DNA from: a virus
Taxonomy: Duplodnaviria > Heunggongvirae > Uroviricota > Caudoviricetes
IMG/VR virus record: IMGVR_UViG_2869947659_000009
Span: 1-18,386 of that record
Length of the DNA: 18,386 nucleotides
Reading direction: 5' to 3' (one strand)
Shown here: piece after piece, positions 1 to 9,704 of the stretch
How positions within the stretch are numbered: position 1 is the first letter of the stretch
Layout: each line of letters begins with the position of its first letter
Position numbers and translations under genes: made by a program
Notes under the pieces: model-generated
What the model was told of the DNA's origin: nothing
Seen by the model: only the letters and a program-made list of their open reading frames with translations
The model's database searches: none

Positions 1-342
1 ATGATGAAAAAAAGTATTCTGGCGTTTCTGTTACTCACCAGTTCTGCAGCGGCGCTGGCTGCACCGCAGGTGATTACCGTCAGTCGTTTTGAAGTGGGTA
101 AAGACAAATGGGCGTTTAATCGCGAAGAGGTGATGCTGACTTGCCGACCGGGTAATGCTTTGTATGTTATTAATCCGAGTACCCTCGTGCAGTATCCTTT
201 AAACGATATCGCACAAAAGGAAGTTGCCAGTGGGAAGACCAATGCCCAACCCATTTCGGTGATTCAGATTGATGATCCTAACAATCCCGGCGAAAAAATG
301 AGTCTGGCACCGTTTATAGAACGAGCTGAAAAACTCTGTTAA
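1..342 (+). CDS. yebY: YebY-like small secreted protein (DUF2511 family), 113 aa
   Basis: Complete ORF with an N-terminal signal peptide ([22 protein letters not shown]). Sequence recognised from memory as E. coli YebY, and the sdsR sRNA lies immediately downstream on the same strand as in E. coli K-12. Followed by a hairpin terminator. Confidence 0.65.
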
Positions 343-377
343 TTACCTAAAATAGCCTTTTGATTTCCAATAAAAAA

Positions 378-414
378 ACCGCCTCAGTTCTTTCACCAGA
401 ACGGGCGGTTTTTA
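378..414. terminator. Bidirectional intrinsic terminator (yebY on + strand; candidate RyeA 3' end on - strand)
   Basis: Imperfect GC-rich hairpin accgcctcagttctttcaccagaacgggcggt, preceded by an A7 run and followed by a T5 run, so it reads as stem plus U-tract on both strands. Confidence 0.5.
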
Positions 415-500
415 ACATTTCAGCTGATGACCACCACGCTTTTTATTGACCATTTTGCACGCAAACTGGAAAACCTGGCGTCGTCATCTATTCTTAAAGG

Positions 501-603
501 GCAAGGCAACTAAGCCTGCATTAATGCCAACTTTTAGCGCACGGCTCTCTCCCAAGAGCCATTTCCCTGGACCGAATACAGGAATCGTATTCGGTCTTTT
601 TTT
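501..603 (+). ncRNA. sdsR: SdsR (RyeB) small RNA, RpoS-dependent
   Basis: Sequence gcaaggcaactaagcctgcattaatgcc...ccgaatacaggaatcgtattcggtcttttttt matches my recollection of SdsR/RyeB, including its terminal hairpin and U-tract. A sigma-S-type -10 (tctattctt, 487-495) sits just upstream. Position downstream of yebY matches K-12 synteny. Confidence 0.6.
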
Positions 604-636
604 AATTTCATTTGAAATCAATTAGTTGCAAATGTC

Positions 637-656
637 TCCCCGAAATTCCCCGAAAT
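637..656 (+). repeat. Perfect 10-bp tandem direct repeat (tccccgaaat x2)
   Basis: Read directly at 637-646 and 647-656, in the 130-bp gap between the sdsR 3' end and the integrase stop codon. Candidate integrase arm-type or accessory-protein site. Confidence 0.6.
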
Positions 657-669
657 TTACTCGAATTTC

Positions 670-690
670 TGTATTCCGGTCTTTTTTGGT
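670..690 (+). repeat. Imperfect second copy of the sdsR 3' terminator end (att-core-like)
   Basis: tgtattccggtcttttttggt (670-690) versus cgtattcggtctttttttaat at the sdsR 3' end (586-606), about 84 bp apart, directly upstream of the integrase 3' end. Confidence 0.4.
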
Positions 691-734
691 TATATCACAA
701 CCAAAATACATTTAACAATCCATTTACGTTAAAA

Positions 735-1263
735 TCAGAGCAGTAAGTACGTTTTTTCTCTCTCATCAAGATACATTTTTGTTGTCTTCTCCGATGTGTG
801 GCCAAGTAGACGCTGAGCAAATTCTTCTCCACATGTTTCTTTGTACAATCGTCCAGCCAGGCTTCTGACTTCGTGAAAAGTTGGTGGGTTTTCACTGAAC
901 TGGATACCTGTTAATTTTCTGGCTGCGACAAATTTCTTTGTCAGGCCGTCCGGGTGAATGCTGCCGTCAGGGCTGTTTTTTCTAATCCCGGCACTGATTA
1001 GATAATCCCCCCTACTTACCATGCGGCACTGTTCAACTACTGCACCAAGTCGTAAACCAGCGACAGGAAGGCTGAGTGACAGGGGGATAGCAATCATCAT
1101 TCCTGTCTTAATTTGCCTGATGTGGAGACGATCATCATAAATATCACTGAACCGCATATTCGTTATGTCTTCGCGACGTTGTCCTGTTACAAGGGCTAAA
1201 TCCATAGCTAATGGGAACCATGCCGGAAGTTGATCTGCTGCCTCCCTGATGCAGTTGTATGTC
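735..1263 (-). pseudogene. int: Lambda-family tyrosine integrase, C-terminal catalytic fragment (separated from the rest by IS600)
   Basis: Translation ...LAMDLALVTGQRREDI...PPTFHEVRSLAGRLY...FAQRLLGHTSEKTTKMYLDERE aligns closely to the lambda Int C-terminus (LAMELAVVTGQR..., PPTFHELRSLSARLY, LLGHKSDTMASQY) with the catalytic R, HxxR and Y. The fragment ends exactly at the IS600 end at 1264. Confidence 0.85.
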
Positions 1264-1429
1264 TGAGGTAGCCTGAGTTTAACGGACACTCCTTCCTGAA
1301 ATAGAATGGCATCAGAAGGAGCTAATAATGAGCAGAAAAAACCAACGTTACTCTAAAGAGTTCAAAGCCGAAGCTGTCAGAACGGTTTGAACCGCCCCGA
1401 GTTTCCTGGAGAGTGTTTTATCTGTGAAC

Positions 1430-2320
1430 TCAGGCTGCCAGATCATCGTTTCCGATGGAAGCATAATAAGCTTTTTCTGCTTCTGCCGGAGGGATGTGGC
1501 CCAGCCTTTCCAGCAATCGTCGATTATTATACCAGTCCACCCACGTGAGTGTGGCCAGTTCCACTTCTGCACGGTTTTTCCAGCTCTTACGGTGTATTAC
1601 CTCCGCTTTGTAAAGACCATTGATGCTCTCCGCCATCGCGTTGTCATACGAGTCGCCTGTACTTCCTGTTGATGCCAGTAATCCGGCTTCCTTAAGCCGC
1701 TGTGTGTAGGCCAGCGATACATACTGAGAACCTTTATCACTGTGATGGACCGTGCCGGACGGTCGACGGGCCCATAACGCCTGCTCCAGAGCATCCAGCA
1801 CGAATGTCGTTTCCATGGACGATGAGACCCGCCACCCCACGATGTATCCGGCAAACACATCAATAATGAACGCCACATAGACGAAGCCCTGCCATGTGCT
1901 GACGTAAGTAAAATCAGCCACCCACAGCTGGTCAGGTCGTTCTGCCACGAACTGACGGTTTACGCGGTCGCCTGCGGCAACGGCTTTCCGGCTGATGGTC
2001 GTACGGACCTTTTTACCCCGGAGAACGCCGGCAAGTCCCATAACCGCCATGAGACGTGCCACAGTGCATCTGGCCACTCTGATACCTTCCCGTAACAACT
2101 GACGCCAGACTTTACGCACACCGTATACCTGATGATTCCCATCGTATACGCGCAGTATCTCTTTCTTCAGCCAGTCATCGCGCTGCGCACGGGCACTGCG
2201 TTTATCAGGATGATGTCGCTGTTGCTGACAGTGGTAATACGTTGACGGGGCAATATGTAGTTCACTGCATACCGGTCCGACCCCGTACAGCTTACGCAGC
2301 TTATCCAGCAGTGGCATCAC
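1430..2320 (-). CDS. IS629 OrfB (DDE transposase catalytic part)
   Basis: 296-aa uninterrupted [32 protein letters not shown]... with the DDE region ...WVADFTYV...HSDKGSQY... Confidence 0.85.
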
Positions 2321-2643
2321 TTTTTCCAGAGGCGGTCGAACTCCGCCTTCGCAAAATAAGCGGAAGCCTGGCGAAGGATATCGTTACTGCGGCGCAGTTC
2401 ACGATTTTCACGTTCCAGCTCTTTCAGACGCTGACGTTCAGCGGTGGTGAGCCCGCCATCACCGCCTCCGGTATCCCGCTCATGCTGGCGTACCCAGACA
2501 CGCAGAGTCTCCGGTGTACAGCCAATCTTTGGGGCAATGGAACAAATTGCCGCCCACTGTGAGTCATATTCGCCCTGACTTTCCAGAACCATACGAATCG
2601 CCCTCTGACGGACTTCGGGGGAAAAACGAGTATTTTTAGTCAT
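2317..2643 (-). CDS. IS629 OrfA (transposase N-terminal, HTH part)
   Basis: 108-aa [29 protein letters not shown]... recognised as IS629/IS1203-type OrfA. It overlaps orfB in the arrangement typical of IS3-family programmed frameshifting. Confidence 0.85.
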
Positions 2644-2978
2644 CCTGTTTACCTCTTTCTCAGGGAGTTTAGTCTCCAGGATTCCCGGGGCGGTTCAGTT
2701 CTTGAAAATCAACTTTCGATCAGTGAAGGCGCTTCCCGATTATCCCTTCCTGAAGGCACTTTAGGACAATGGGTTACCGCCGCCAGAAAAGGGCTCGGTA
2801 CTCCTGGTTCCCGCACGGTGGCTGAACTGGAATCTGAAATTCTGCAACTGCGTAAGGCGTTAAATGAAGCTCGCCTTGAGCGAGATATATTAAAAAAAGC
2901 AACAGCGTATTTTGCACAGGAGTCGCTGAAAAATACGCGTTAATCGAACAATGGCGACAACAATTTCCCATTGAAGCG

Positions 2979-3797
2979 ATGTGTCAGGTATTTGGTGTAT
3001 CCAGGAGCGGTTATTACAACTGGGTACAGCATGAACCCTCAGACAGAAAACAAAGTGATGAGCGGCTAAAACTGGAGATTAAGGTGGCACATATCCGCAC
3101 TCGCGAAACATATGGAACCCGGCGGCTCCAGACGGAGCTGGCAGAGAATGGCATCATCGTTGGTCGTGACCGACTGGCACGTCTTCGTAAGGAGCTAAGG
3201 CTACGCTGTAAGCAGAAACGCAAGTTCAGAGCGACTACGAACCCGAACCACAATCTGCCAGTTGCGCCAAATCTGCTGAACCAGACGTTCGCTCCTACAG
3301 CACCAAATCAGGTCTGGGTGGCGGACCTGACGTATGTTGCCACACAGGAGGGATGGTTGTACCTCGCTGGCATCAAAGATGTTTATACGTGCGAAATTGT
3401 CGGCTACGCCATGGGAGAGCGCATGACAAAAGAGCTGACAGGTAAAGCCCTGTTTATGGCGCTCAGGAGCCAGCGCCCACCTGCCGGGCTAATCCACCAC
3501 TCTGATCGAGGTTCACAGTACTGCGCATACGATTACCGGGTCATACAGGAGCAGTCTGGTCTGAAAACATCAATGTCGCGTAAAGGTCACTGTTACGACA
3601 ACGCTCCGATGGAAAGCTTCTGGGGAACGCTGAAAAATGAGAGCCTGAGCCACTATCGTTTTAATAACCGGGATGAAGCCATCTCAGTAATACGGGAATA
3701 CATTGAGATTTTTTACAATCGTCAGCGTCGTCACTCTCGTCTGGGGAATATCTCCCCGGCAGCCTTCAGGGAAAAATATCATCAGATGGCTGCTTAA
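2979..3797 (+). CDS. IS600 copy A OrfB (DDE transposase part); its partner orfA is disrupted by IS629
   Basis: 272-aa ORF MCQVFGVSRSGYYNW...WVADLTYV...HHSDRGSQY... It ends ...HQMAA because of TAA at 3795-3797, where copies B and C have CAA and run six codons further. Confidence 0.75.
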   Translation: MCQVFGVSRSGYYNWVQHEPSDRKQSDERLKLEIKVAHIRTRETYGTRRLQTELAENGIIVGRDRLARLRKELRLRCKQKRKFRATTNPNHNLPVAPNLLNQTFAPTAPNQVWVADLTYVATQEGWLYLAGIKDVYTCEIVGYAMGERMTKELTGKALFMALRSQRPPAGLIHHSDRGSQYCAYDYRVIQEQSGLKTSMSRKGHCYDNAPMESFWGTLKNESLSHYRFNNRDEAISVIREYIEIFYNRQRRHSRLGNISPAAFREKYHQMAA

Positions 3798-3840
3798 AAA
3801 AAGAACAAATGGTAGTGTCCGCTATTGCCAGTACACCTCA

Positions 3841-4276
3841 GTCTTTAGTTTCAGTCGTTCTCTTGTAACTACTATTTTCGGTGCTCTTGTTGGCGTGACT
3901 GGATTTTGAGATATACGTCCTTCAACAATGGCCTCGCGAAACATATCAGACAACACAGAACGCATTGATCCTGCCATTGTGTTTTTCCCTCCTTCAATCC
4001 ACAAATCAAGAAACTCGGCAATATGGCGAGTGGTTATTTCTGTCAGTAAAATCTCTCCCAATTTTTCTTTTATTGTCTTCAGTTGATTTGCCCGAATTTT
4101 ATAAGTATTTCTGGACACTTTTCTCCTTATAAGAATCGTTTTGTAACGTTCAATCCAGTCTGCCATAGTAAATGAGTCGAACCCTTTAAGTTTTTCAATT
4201 AAGGCAGCAGGAGAGTAGTTTTTGTATATATAATGATTTGCTTCAATTGCCTGCGCTACTGCATCTCTTCTTGAAA
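3841..4276 (-). pseudogene. int: Lambda-family integrase, central (core-binding) fragment; 5' end missing at the IS911 junction
   Basis: Translation RRDAVAQAIEANHYIY...WIERYKTIL...ITTRHIAEFLDLWIEGGKN...MRSVLSDMFREAIVEGRISQNPV aligns to lambda Int residues about 40-180. Removing IS600 and one GTC copy rejoins it in frame to the 735-1263 fragment (...RERLKLKT/YNCIREAADQ...). The upstream boundary is the IS911 end at 4277. Confidence 0.8.
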
Positions 4277-4284
4277 TGAAGTGG

Positions 4285-5453
<1,169 letters not shown>

Positions 5454-5572
5454 TGGAGCACCTGTGTTGTTCTGAGGTGAGCATATCACCTCTGTTCAGG
5501 TGGCCAAATTCAGTGTGCCACTTCATAGATAGGCCTGTGTGTTTATTGCTCGTTGAAAAAGCGCCATAGATT

Positions 5573-5869
5573 TTAGTCCTCCAAATCAATATCAACCTGG
5601 TGGTGGGCAATGGTTTCAGCCATGTACCGGATGTGTTCTGCCATGCGCTCCTGAAACTCAACATCATCATCAAATGCGTGGCTGATTGCCTGTTTATTGG
5701 CACCGTGGCGTTGCAAATGGTCGATGCAGAGCGATTCAAACAGGTGCTGAGGCAGACCTTTTTCCAGATCGTCCGCCAGTTCCGTTTCTTTTTCTTCACG
5801 AACGATCTGCTGGTAGTGACGAGCCCATGCCATTTCTTCAATACGATCAAAAATCGGGTAAGCGCTCAT
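5573..5869 (-). CDS. Hypothetical acidic 98-aa protein (prophage early-left region)
   Basis: [43 protein letters not shown]... with a GGAG Shine-Dalgarno 9 nt upstream of the ATG at 5869. No family recognised. It lies immediately beside the IS911 end. Confidence 0.5.
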
Positions 5870-7577
5870 CACTGGTCACTCCAAAATTTTCAAGCTTGTT
5901 GGCAATCATCATTGCGATGCCAGGGATTGCAGGCGCATAGGCTATGCACGCAGGATTCGCACATAAACCGTAAACCGCCGCAATCAACACCTGTTTTTTT
6001 CCAGTTGAGTTCATCTTCGCCAGTTTCATTATTGCTATCATTATGCTGATCGCTGCCAGCGTTCTCCGGCAACAAATCATCAGCTTTTTCCGTTTTCTTC
6101 GGCTCTTCTTCCTGTGCTTCATCTGGTTTTTTTCGTCAAAAGTTTCCTGATAAGTTGCGTCTCCCATCACCGCGCCACAGTCAGGGCAGTTATCCTCGCC
6201 AGTCTGATTGCAGGGTGTTCCCTCCTCCGGTTCGCTGTTCTGGTGCTGTTTATCTTCAGTCTGTCGCACTTCATTTTCCGTTTTTTTGACTTCATTTGAG
6301 GAGATATGATGACCGGGAATCCATTTCGAATCATTCGGGTCGCTAATCCCTTCAACAAATTCTCCGCGAGAGGCAGCCAGTAATTTGTCTGCATCGACAG
6401 GATTTTTGGGCGGAATGTTTTTCCGGGCTTCATGGAGTTCTGTCCGCAGTTTCTGATATTTCGCATCAACAGCATTTACCTGTGACTGAGCATCCAGCGG
6501 CTGCGTGTCCTGATGATGTTCAGTTGCATCCGGTTCCACTGTTTCAGCCGTTGCCTGTTCATCTGCCATTGCGCAAGATGGTTGCGGTTTTTCTTCATCA
6601 TCCTGTTTTCCTTCTTCTGTTACACGTTGCGGCATCGGGGCAGAGGAGCGACCGCAGGCAATATCCACGATTTCCGGATCAGGGTTGGCATGATCGGTTT
6701 CAGTCAGTACCTTGTTCAGATATTCAGTGACGTGCGCGGGGATGACCTCGATACCAATCGGTGCTTCTTTCACTGACGCAACCACGATGGCGCGGGAATA
6801 ATCCATCCCGCCAGGCATGGTGATGAATTTGTCGCGGAAAACAGAAAAGGGTGGTTTATTTTCAGCGATAATTTCCTCAATGCGTTTAGCGTGTGCCGGA
6901 TGAAGGTTATAAATATCCACGTCCATTGAACGGGCCAGTACGCCAGTGGCTACGTCGCGCGCCAGCGACGTCAGATCGTGGACGAAACCTTCGCCGCGAT
7001 CGGTGAGGTTCCCGCCGCCAGCATTCGCACCGGAAGCCGTGCGCGTGATGCGTGAAACACGATTTCCTTTCATCCACTCTTTTGTCAGCAGACCGCGATC
7101 GGTGTAGTTGGCATCCAGATATGCTTCGAAAAAAGCAGTCATCAGTCCCAGATTTGAATTGCCAGGATTAGGGAAAACTTTGTCAGTATCACGCACGAGT
7201 TTGTGGAGATCGCGAATTTCCAGCGGGTCGAGCAGGCTGGTTTTATGCGAAACAGCCAGGGCAGTAACAGCTGGTAGTTCCTCAGCCCGTGCAATGTGTA
7301 ATGCCTGGAGTTCGTCGCGTGAAACGTACGTTACCGGTTTTTCGCTGCCGTGTTGAGCAAGCCAGCGAATGGGCAGCTCCTGACCAGAAATCGGGAGTAG
7401 CATATTCTCCTCAATCTCCGTCATGTCTTCGCCATTAACATTGGTATTGTCAGTGCTGGCTGGTTTGTCCTGCGCAGAGGGTGAGGGCGCGATAAATACC
7501 ATTGTGATGCCATCTTCCCCGCCTTTTTCGTAACGGTTGCAGAATTCCGTATCAAACACGCCTTCTGGTGGGAGGTC
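5847..7577 (-). pseudogene. recE: RecE-like (exonuclease VIII family) gene, distal part; interrupted upstream by IS600 and apparently lacking the C-terminal nuclease domain
   Basis: Long ORF with strings ([107 protein letters not shown]) that match my recollection of the non-catalytic N-terminal two-thirds of Rac RecE. After ...DPNDSKW the sequence diverges and ends in [10 protein letters not shown]..., a polybasic run and a hydrophobic tail, with nothing resembling a PD-(D/E)xK nuclease domain. Confidence 0.55.
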
Positions 7578-7641
7578 TGAGGTAGCCTGAGTTTAACGGA
7601 CACTCCTTCCTGAAATAGAATGGCATCAGAAGGAGCTAATA

Positions 7642-7884
7642 ATGAGCAGAAAAAACCAACGTTACTCTAAAGAGTTCAAAGCCGAAGCTGTCAGAACGGT
7701 TCTTGAAAATCAACTTTCGATCAGTGAAGGCGCTTCCCGATTATCCCTTCCTGAAGGCACTTTAGGACAATGGGTTACCGCCGCCAGAAAAGGGCTCGGT
7801 ACTCCTGGTTCCCGCACGGTGGCTGAACTGGAATCTGAAATTCTGCAACTGCGTAAGGCGTTAAATGAAGCTCGCCTTGAGTGA
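7642..7884 (+). pseudogene. IS600 copy B orfA with nonsense mutation (80 codons instead of 100)
   Basis: Identical to copy C OrfA up to ...ALNEARLE, then TGA in place of CGA (a single C-to-T change at 7882). Confidence 0.7.
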
Positions 7885-7979
7885 GATATATTAAAAAAAG
7901 CAACAGCGTATTTTGCACAGGAGTCGCTGAAAAATACGCGTTAATCGAACAATGGCGACAACAATTTCCCATTGAAGCG

Positions 7980-8816
7980 ATGTGTCAGGTATTTGGTGTA
8001 TCCAGGAGCGGTTATTACAACTGGGTACAGCATGAACCCTCAGACAGAAAACAAAGTGATGAGCGGCTAAAACTGGAGATTAAGGTGGCACATATCCGCA
8101 CTCGCGAAACATATGGAACCCGGCGGCTCCAGACGGAGCTGGCAGAGAATGGCATCATCGTTGGTCGTGACCGACTGGCACGTCTTCGTAAGGAGCTAAG
8201 GCTACGCTGTAAGCAGAAACGCAAGTTCAGAGCGACTACGAACCCGAACCACAATCTGCCAGTTGCGCCAAATCTGCTGAACCAGACGTTCGCTCCTACA
8301 GCACCAAATCAGGTCTGGGTGGCGGACCTGACGTATGTTGCCACACAGGAGGGATGGTTGTACCTCGCTGGCATCAAAGATGTTTATACGTGCGAAATTG
8401 TCGGCTACGCCATGGGAGAGCGCATGACAAAAGAGCTGACAGGTAAAGCCCTGTTTATGGCGCTCAGGAGCCAGCGCCCACCTGCCGGGCTAATCCACCA
8501 CTCTGATCGAGGTTCACAGTACTGCGCATACGATTACCGGGTCATACAGGAGCAGTCTGGTCTGAAAACATCAATGTCGCGTAAAGGTCACTGTTACGAC
8601 AACGCTCCGATGGAAAGCTTCTGGGGAACGCTGAAAAATGAGAGCCTGAGCCACTATCGTTTTAATAACCGGGATGAAGCCATCTCAGTAATACGGGAAT
8701 ACATTGAGATTTTCTACAATCGTCAGCGTCGTCACTCTCGTCTGGGGAATATCTCCCCGGCAGCCTTCAGGGAAAAATATCATCAGATGGCTGCTCAAAA
8801 AAAGAACAAATGGTAG
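7980..8816 (+). CDS. IS600 copy B OrfB (DDE transposase part)
   Basis: Open frame MCQVFGVSRSGYY...HQMAAQKKNKW. The upstream in-frame extension exists only because the orfA stop is displaced. Confidence 0.75.
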   Translation: MCQVFGVSRSGYYNWVQHEPSDRKQSDERLKLEIKVAHIRTRETYGTRRLQTELAENGIIVGRDRLARLRKELRLRCKQKRKFRATTNPNHNLPVAPNLLNQTFAPTAPNQVWVADLTYVATQEGWLYLAGIKDVYTCEIVGYAMGERMTKELTGKALFMALRSQRPPAGLIHHSDRGSQYCAYDYRVIQEQSGLKTSMSRKGHCYDNAPMESFWGTLKNESLSHYRFNNRDEAISVIREYIEIFYNRQRRHSRLGNISPAAFREKYHQMAAQKKNKW

Positions 8817-8841
8817 TGTCCGCTATTGCCAGTACACCTCA

Positions 8842-9054
8842 GTCATCAACAACGGGCAAATTGACGCGAACAGGTTTTTTGAAGTCATCTTCATCGTATC
8901 CAGCATCGTCAATCGCAACAGCACCACGGGAGATGGCAATGGATAATTTTTTCGCTTCAGCCCAGTAAAAACCGCCTTTAATACCGAGACGTTTTCTTAC
9001 TTTGTCATTTTTTGCTTCGTAATACAGTGGGTAAACTTGTTTATCGGTGTTCAT
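8842..9054 (-). pseudogene. recE: RecE-like gene, N-terminal 70 codons (upstream of the IS600 insertion)
   Basis: ORF MNTDKQVYPLYYEAKND...KPVRVNLPVVDD with a GAGG Shine-Dalgarno before the ATG at 9054. Removing IS600 B and one GTC copy gives the in-frame junction ...[23 protein letters not shown]..., resembling the RecE segment [23 protein letters not shown]. Confidence 0.5.
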
Positions 9055-9124
9055 TGTTTTTTAACCTCAACTCAGATTAAAATTACTGCGAGTGATGAAT
9101 AAATGTCCCAGGTTCTTCACTCAG

Positions 9125-9154
9125 GCCTGCACAGTGTGCAGGCTTTCTTTTTTT
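9125..9154 (+). terminator. Intrinsic-terminator-like hairpin on the + strand
   Basis: gcctgcac-agt-gtgcaggc stem-loop followed by tttcttttttt, in the 176-bp gap between two minus-strand genes. On the minus strand the hairpin is not followed by a U-tract. Confidence 0.4.
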
Positions 9155-9230
9155 CAGATTTCACCTTTTAATTTCATTGCAATCAGAGTTGCCAGAAATT
9201 CGGCTTTTTTTTCTGCGGGCAGATTCTTTC

Positions 9231-9428
9231 CTATGTGCACCAGACACATTTTTTTACACCATCGTTAAGTGTTTTAACGTTGCCTGATGGACCGTCGATA
9301 TCAACCACAGTGAATGGGGTTTCTTTATTTTCTGTCTTAATCACGTAGCCAATACGCTTTCCTTCCAGATTAACCTCGTGAACAATGTCATCAGTAGTTA
9401 CAACAGTGGCTTCATAACTGGTAATCAT
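9231..9428 (-). CDS. Hypothetical 65-aa protein
   Basis: ORF MITSYEATVVTTDDIVHEVNLEGKRIGYVIKTENKETPFTVVDIDGPSGNVKTLNDGVKKCVWCT with a strong AAGGAG Shine-Dalgarno 7 nt upstream of the ATG at 9428. C-terminal CxxC. No family recognised. Confidence 0.5.
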   Translation of the reverse strand: MITSYEATVVTTDDIVHEVNLEGKRIGYVIKTENKETPFTVVDIDGPSGNVKTLNDGVKKCVWCT

Positions 9429-9512
9429 GTTTTTCTCCTTAATTAAGGTTGAGCGAACCCCTGCCATTGCTGGCATATAAGAATGAAACCGGATATTTAT
9501 TACGGAACTGTT

Positions 9513-9704
9513 TTAAAGACCTGCCGGGATTTCGTTATTATCATGGTGAATAACTTTATCGACCGGATAACAGTCACCGGGAATTTTCTGTTTCGCTGCG
9601 GCAGTCATACATTCTTTCATTGAGCTGTATACGCCAGTAACCATGTCAACCGGTTCACCGGAAACAAGAAAAACCGTCAGAACGAGTGCAAATACTGTAT
9701 TCAT
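9513..9704 (-). CDS. Hypothetical 63-aa protein with N-terminal signal peptide or membrane anchor
   Basis: ORF MNTVFALVLTVFLVSGEPVDMVTGVYSSMKECMTAAAKQKIPGDCYPVDKVIHHDNNEIPAGL. Its ATG overlaps the stop of the upstream gene (ATGA at 9701-9704). Hydrophobic N-terminus and two Cys. Confidence 0.5.
   Translation of the reverse strand: MNTVFALVLTVFLVSGEPVDMVTGVYSSMKECMTAAAKQKIPGDCYPVDKVIHHDNNEIPAGL

Follow-up and report, generated by a model that had tools for sequence, protein, structure and literature searches.

What remains of a recE-like gene that is split by an insertion sequence (IS) and does not end in the RecE nuclease? The question is raised by IMG/VR record IMGVR_UViG_2869947659_000009, positions 1 to 18,386, a stretch of caudoviricete DNA analysed here at its full length of 18,386 nucleotides ("the window"). 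A first-pass annotation, made from the letters alone, described the gene as inactivated twice or as carrying a replaced 3´ end. Our answer, to which we give a probability of about 0.88, is that a nuclease-less RecE-like (RecE-2 type) gene has become a pseudogene here; it belongs to the early-left operon of a decayed Rac-like prophage, which is integrated next to yebY in a Shigella or enteroinvasive Escherichia coli (EIEC)-type genome. The interrupted gene and its insertion are laid out as follows:

8842–9054, minus strand: 5´ fragment of the recE-like (RecE-2 type) gene, 71 codons, with the duplicated target triplet (GAC) as the last codon
7578–8841, plus strand: IS600 (IS3 family), 1264 bp, in the orientation opposite to that of the recE-like gene
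7575–7577 and 8842–8844, no strand assigned: target-site duplication GTC, present as a single GTC in relatives without the IS
5847–7577, minus strand: 3´ fragment of the recE-like gene, 576 codons and a stop

The open reading frame (ORF) of the 5´ fragment (9054–8842) runs into a stop inside the element (8839–8841). Excision of IS600 and one GTC leaves a continuous, in-frame ORF of 646 codons, and the pieces of 71 and 576 codons are thus rejoined into a protein of 646 amino acids (aa), as had been proposed from the letters. This is not a chance of reading frames, because the gene is uninterrupted in the related assemblies L008 and L009. Their single GTC is shown by a 3-bp overlap of the BLAST segments, and the 5´ fragment is 100% identical to both across the junction. 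The element itself, with the termini TGAGGTAGCC... and ...GTACACCTCA, is 99.8% identical to annotated IS600, and a second copy in the window (13805–15069) does not differ from it. The copy in the recE-like gene is of full length, with a 3-bp direct duplication and an empty site in relatives. The junction of IS600 with recE was not found in GTDB representative genomes. Compared with IS600-made pseudogenes of Shigella genomes, which have the same 1264-bp IS3-family element and 3-bp duplication, there is nothing unusual about the insertion.

The rebuilt protein has a single Pfam match, to PF06630 (Exonuc_VIII; E = 2e-36, residues 52–189), and tblastn with K-12 RecE (taken from NC_000913.3) aligns residues 62–550 of the query to window positions 7580–6120 at 81% identity. 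The resemblance to the non-catalytic part of RecE, already noted in the first-pass annotation, is borne out by these matches. The profile comparison that had been advised also gave significant similarity: in the NCBIfam exodeoxyribonuclease VIII equivalog NF007259, model positions 1–568 of 877 are covered, with a score of 1038.6 bits, below the curated cutoff of 1269 and hence short of a full-length equivalog. Where the resemblance ends is best seen from the 3´ part of the gene:

6129–6191, minus strand: Cys knuckle and its flank, native RecE sequence, near-identical in K-12 RecE and all relatives
6127–6133, minus strand (a T-run on the plus strand): site 1, a coding-strand run of seven A (A7) following TTTGACG, against A8 in intact alleles; a −1 change
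6000–6128, minus strand: 43 out-of-frame codons (...NSTG) in place of the acidic linker (...GEDELNW), from the alignment with relatives
5994–6000, minus strand: site 2, an A7 run following CAACTGG, against A6 in all relatives; a private +1 change that restores the frame
5850–5999, minus strand: C-terminal tail of the nuclease-less family (...ENFG...), the last 50 residues, in the original frame and conserved across the family

In the first-pass annotation, the ORF was taken to leave RecE after the residues DPNDSKW (6321–6341) and to continue as a foreign CxxC motif, a polybasic stretch and a hydrophobic tail. The first of these boundaries turned out to be only a variable linker stretch of 43 residues (6192–6320), which also differs among other alleles; RecE homology continues past it, because identity resumes at 6129–6191. 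The CxxC motif is present in K-12 RecE as well, and K-12 residues 551–585 match 6120–6016 in a different frame (E = 8e-4). To judge from these alignments, the homology extends through the CxxC knuckle and ends near K-12 residue 585. Instead of the first Cys pair of the knuckle (CNAC in K-12, CTAC in strain R1), a single Cys is present here (TPCNQTG, within 6192–6320). In another allele (P0131) the knuckle is wholly absent, and the putative zinc site is therefore not conserved across the family. A sequence search of the PDB with an intact homologue gave no match. The AlphaFold model is of moderate confidence (mean predicted local distance difference test score, pLDDT, of 63; 55–60 in the tail) and its structural neighbours are uninformative.

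The polybasic stretch was resolved by DNA alignment of the window with intact copies from E. coli CFSAN029787 (L001) and E. coli strain R1 (L002). It consists of the 43 linker codons read out of frame between the two homopolymer changes. At sites 1 and 2 the window has A7/A7, whereas the intact alleles L001, L003 and L004 have A8/A6 and four Shigella assemblies (L008–L011) have A7/A6. When both changes are reversed, 638 of the 646 residues are identical to the intact CFSAN029787 protein. A genuine, acquired C-terminal domain, for example one that binds nucleic acid or anchors the protein in a membrane, would agree with the position of the stretch within an open frame of 646 codons and with the hydropathy of the tail. 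In the E. coli allele the latter reaches at most 1.72 over 19 residues, a borderline value for a membrane helix. However, there is no basic segment outside the interval bounded by the two single-base homopolymer changes, every relative has an acidic linker at this place, and it is the other frame that K-12 RecE residues 551–585 match. We therefore reject a real basic domain, which is extremely improbable, in favour of an out-of-frame reading of the acidic linker. A transmembrane anchor formed by the tail was likewise rejected, since distant tails hold acidic residues (FDEIAEMA, FEEIPHMA).

The two changes differ in standing. The A7 run at site 1 is common to the four Shigella assemblies, which are independent, and the −1 change is, on this comparison, real and inherited. 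Because these assemblies combine A7 at site 1 with A6 at site 2, their ORF ends at codon 600 (...NSTGKNRC*), and the tail is called as a remnant ORF of 75 aa (P0001). The frameshift predates IS600, since L008 and L009 have it without IS600 in the gene. At site 2, neither L010 nor L011 has the A7 run, even though both are 99.95% identical to the window and have contig ends close to the same IS positions. The site-2 A7 allele was not found in GTDB representative genomes either. The +1 change may be a homopolymer miscall or else a private mutation that restored the frame. One could imagine that it was selected as an intragenic suppressor which brought back the tail after the −1 change, the protein still being useful to the host before the arrival of IS600. 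The exact compensation of the two changes within a disordered, variable linker would fit such a history, as would an unrelated E. coli protein (P0004, 97 aa) that has the same −1 reading and an earlier return to frame, at ...KKADDLL. We nevertheless consider selection unlikely, given that the closest assemblies and the GTDB representatives are without the site-2 allele, that homopolymer miscalls are a common assembly error, and that IS600 disrupts the gene anyway. Because P0004 shares the −1 change and returns to frame elsewhere, the linker seems to collect homopolymer indels, or miscalls of them, repeatedly.

Unlike the stretch before it, the hydrophobic tail noted in the first reading is real, and it lies in a gene without a nuclease. 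It is not foreign, as it represents the native C-terminus of a nuclease-less family, read in the original frame. A motif derived in this analysis serves as the family criterion: L-x-[WFY]-x-Q-x-L-x-[IL]-A-A-x-x-G-L-C-A-N-P, followed by a second helix with [DE]-I-[PA]-x-[MFI]-A; GLCANP is encoded at 5952–5969. The motif, in frame in the window, is shared with L001, L002, L005, L006, L012 (= P0181), L014 (= P0138), P0132, P0135, P0136 and P0144. A profile of the tail gave 11 matches among 1.84 billion representative proteins, and except for one short overlap with the start of gam these are C-termini or fragments of proteins with the RecE body. Distant members from Buttiauxella (about 30% identity in the body) and relatives of Cedecea proteins are among them. 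A further search for tail-bearing proteins added Cedecea, Salmonella and one unclassified Enterobacteriaceae isolate, and a word-indexed protein search with the tail returned eight fragments only. In the phage collection, tblastn with the 55-aa tail gave no match, which probably reflects the low-complexity filter. In Pfam the tail has no match; in PHROGs, only phrog_26058 (unknown function) is significant, besides a marginal match to the mixed profile phrog_607. AlphaFold predicts two helices in the tail (residues 596–634), at low confidence (pLDDT 55–60).

The linker just upstream of the tail is not alignable between tail-bearing proteins. For the tail itself, the ratio of nonsynonymous to synonymous substitution rates (dN/dS) is 0.07–0.16 at dS 0.4–1.8 (39 codons; six sequences, E. 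coli and Shiga toxin (Stx)-phage alleles). Because the motif is conserved beside an unalignable linker and dN/dS is low, the tail is, as far as substitution patterns tell, a constrained coding module under purifying selection and not read-through junk. This bears on a further explanation, according to which this Shigella lineage had a classical RecE whose nuclease and recT were recently deleted or replaced, the tail being meaningless read-through. The alignment of the exodeoxyribonuclease VIII equivalog at 1–568 of 877 only, below its cutoff, and the label "missing C-terminus" given to close relatives by the Prokaryotic Genome Annotation Pipeline (PGAP) are what such a loss would produce. However, intact genes of inducible Stx phages end in this very tail, as do those of E. 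coli, Salmonella, Cedecea and Buttiauxella prophages, and both the conservation of the tail next to a divergent linker and its dN/dS stand against a chance sequence. Contradicted by a widespread, intact and constrained tail, a recent deletion of the nuclease is very unlikely and was rejected. The suspicion that the 3´ end had been replaced thus holds in an evolutionary sense only, for a gene type made of body plus tail, and not as a lesion specific to this locus.

Neither a nuclease nor a recombination partner remains nearby. The tblastn check that had been suggested was widened from the 3´ region to all six frames of the whole window, where the RecE nuclease domain (K-12 residues 590–866) reached E = 4.1 at best, RecT 0.96, Bet 1.8 and lambda Exo 0.2. 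Pfam likewise gave no match of the rebuilt protein to the PD-(D/E)XK domain PF12684. The absence of a nuclease-like domain and of a downstream recT, both stated in the first-pass annotation, is thereby upheld. 5´-3´ double-stranded DNA exonuclease activity is not expected of the rebuilt protein because it has no nuclease domain. The gene that does follow had gone unrecognised:

5573–5869, minus strand: gam, intact, 98 aa, full-length PF06064 (E = 8e-56), 90% identical to R1 Gam
4277–5526, no strand assigned: IS911, downstream of gam, with 99.8% identity to the element annotated as IS911 in L003

The start of gam overlaps the stop of the recE-like gene by 23 nucleotides, as it does in strain R1. 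In R1, Stx phages and Salmonella, gam is followed by bet and exo. In EIEC it is followed by an AAA_24 ATPase of 365 aa (L001 8011–9108) instead of Bet-Exo. This ATPase has a match to phrog_1366 (unknown function; E = 1e-79) and a weaker one to phrog_124, the family of Sak4-like annealases (E = 1e-8). In neither arrangement is recT the gene that follows. With RecE-2, Gam and AAA_24 ATPase in the EIEC relatives, one recombination module has been exchanged for another at an unchanged position in the prophage. A remnant of the Sak4-like ATPase, about 14 codons (5567–5527), stands directly before IS911 in the window. In the tblastn alignment, ATPase residues 1–22 extend over 5567–5502, the last part lying inside IS911. 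Compared with the relatives, the window lacks all other ATPase codons, DUF1187, xis and ~38 codons at the 5´ end of int, which suggests that a deletion adjacent to IS911 removed the genes on the ATPase side. E. coli O121 strain 201805972 (L003, 11248–13066) keeps the ATPase, DUF1187 and the excisionase gene, which window positions 4277–5567 do not contain, and L008 has the same joint at IS911 as the window. A Cedecea prophage, likewise situated at yebY, has DUF1187-xis-int directly after the body-plus-tail gene, and no recombinase was called in the 12-kb locus.

The family to which the window gene belongs has many intact members. Intact copies of 646 aa are found in EIEC, E. coli, S. sonnei, S. 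flexneri, S. boydii and S. dysenteriae, and E. coli R1 has an intact protein of 665 aa (WP_155849666.1) upstream of gam-bet-exo, as have Salmonella prophages the same body-plus-tail gene. Shigella phage 75/02 Stx and Escherichia phage phiSTEC1589-Stx1c encode intact proteins of 682–690 aa, annotated as exodeoxyribonuclease VIII, and the tail-gam DNA of Shigella phage POCJ13 matches likewise. The window gene shares with this family the RecE body without a nuclease domain, the tail and the early-left operon position. Its ORF alone is not intact, being split by IS600 and having 43 codons out of frame. The gene order in the window (Rha/Ash, DUF1482, a small ORF, recE´, gam, IS911, int, yebY) follows the same layout as in L002, L012 and L014. 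RecE-related proteins without a nuclease domain have been described as "RecE-2" in a survey of lambdoid Rec modules, where their role is unknown (Genome Res 2025, PMC12315714). Because RecE-2 is reported there, the window gene is of an already described kind, which is routinely annotated as "RecE family exodeoxyribonuclease".

Comparison with K-12 RecE (Rac prophage, b1350, 866 aa) shows homology over the N-terminal ~585 residues, with PF06630 and the Cys knuckle common to both, and the same early-left operon position, downstream of kilR/ydaE/racC-type genes. In contrast to K-12 RecE, the window gene has neither the PF12684 nuclease nor a downstream recT but ends in a tail of ~40–50 aa followed by gam, and the first ~60 residues of its product are those of a different allele. 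RecE-2 proteins such as AHB80178.1 of phage 75/02 Stx and WP_155849666.1 of R1 share the body, the acidic linker and the GLCANP tail with the window gene, and their genes are directly upstream of gam. Unlike these, the window copy is broken by IS600, carries the −1/+1 pair and has lost its recombinase partner by deletion. In all, three C-termini are joined to the RecE body: the PD-(D/E)XK nuclease PF12684 of classical RecE (866–892 aa), the DnaQ-like DEDD domain PF16473 (814 aa) and the tail alone (572–736 aa). The second type comprises E. coli proteins of 814 aa (P0118, P0105 and P0115), a third natural architecture in which a Rv2179c-like/DnaQ-like 3´-5´ exonuclease follows the body. P0118 shares the body with the window gene (86% identity), but it ends in a different nuclease, and the window gene has none. 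DnaQ-like nucleases have also been reported in lambdoid Rec modules (PMC12315714). Since the PF16473 fusions share the body, the RecE body is a module joined to alternative C-termini.

A broader proposal, which we hold to have about an even chance, is that the RecE body can accompany any recombination module, whether RecE nuclease/RecT, Gam-Bet-Exo, Gam-Sak4 or a DnaQ-like exonuclease. K-12 RecE would then be a fusion that lost the tail, the role of the body, in which the tail might serve as an interaction handle, would be independent of exonuclease activity, and the window copy would be one dead member. For the intact family, our best guess is an accessory, non-catalytic factor of recombination or of the early-left module, with the tail as an element of protein-protein interaction or self-association. 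The function of the RecE N-terminal domain is unknown (PMC11611040).

Under the pseudogene reading, the ancestral protein of 646 aa would have consisted of the RecE N-terminal body with two folded regions (about residues 1–100 and 130–385), a long, acidic, disordered linker with the Cys knuckle, and a helical tail of ~40 aa, and would at no stage have contained a PD-(D/E)XK nuclease. The order of decay emerges from comparison with relatives. A −1 slip in the A8 run first garbled the linker and, in relatives, truncated the protein at 600 aa. In the window only, a +1 slip 126 nucleotides downstream, by mutation or by assembly error, returned the tail to frame. IS600 then entered codon 71 with duplication of GTC, and finally the insertion of IS911 and the adjacent deletion took the recombinase side of the module. 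The idea of a double inactivation is thus well founded, in that the IS600 insertion and the lineage-shared −1 change in the A-run at 6127–6133 both disable the gene, the +1 change at 5994–6000 being a further event that restores the frame. We infer that the window gene is now non-functional.

Several points weigh against this account. The +1 change at site 2, seen only in the window, may be a sequencing error, and the true ORF would then end at codon 600 as in L009. The PGAP label of the intact EIEC copies, "incomplete, missing C-terminus", could be read as truncation, although it arises because the copies are measured against full-length RecE. The ancestral form may have been either body-plus-tail or body-plus-nuclease. 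Finally, the function proposed for the intact protein is a guess, the AlphaFold model being of moderate quality and its neighbours uninformative.

The locus itself is an ordinary prophage pseudogene, IS-disrupted and frameshifted, whose apparent new C-terminal domain vanishes on inspection, and the remaining interest lies in the family rather than in the window copy. The existence of nuclease-less RecE-like proteins is already published. The N-terminal part of RecE boosts linear-linear recombineering, and its natural occurrence as a separate, nuclease-less, tailed protein offers a cleaner handle for testing its role.

The surroundings of the gene fit a Shigella or EIEC origin, both in the IS load and in the presence of an ipaH-type gene, and in the closest assemblies the proteins are named as S. 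boydii or S. dysenteriae. The window contains, in order, yebY (1–342), int, gam, the recE-like gene, DUF1482 and Rha/Ash, and IS and tail-fibre fragments, beyond which follow further copies of IS600 and IS629 and the ipaH-type NEL E3-ligase gene. The 18-kb stretch holds three IS600 copies in all, besides IS629 and IS911. The integrase gene (735–4277) is interrupted at 1264/3841 by IS600, and its 5´ end (~38 codons) is gone where IS911 abuts at 4277. The int-borne IS600 is itself split by a 1310-bp element of the IS3 family (1388–2697), taken as IS629 from its terminal repeats, and both insertions in the int region are flanked by 3-bp duplications. An IS3-family integrase-core fragment lies at 11137–11685, and fragments of tail-fibre and tail-fibre-assembly genes at 11706–12056 and 12469–13740. 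In the same region, an ORF of 296 aa (12058–12948, minus strand) has no family match and is probably spurious. The ipaH-type type III effector gene (16671–18386, minus strand), the ORF of which starts at the last base of the window, encodes LRR_TTSS and NEL E3-ligase domains, and its leucine-rich repeats are encoded by 60-nucleotide tandem repeats at 17838–18077.

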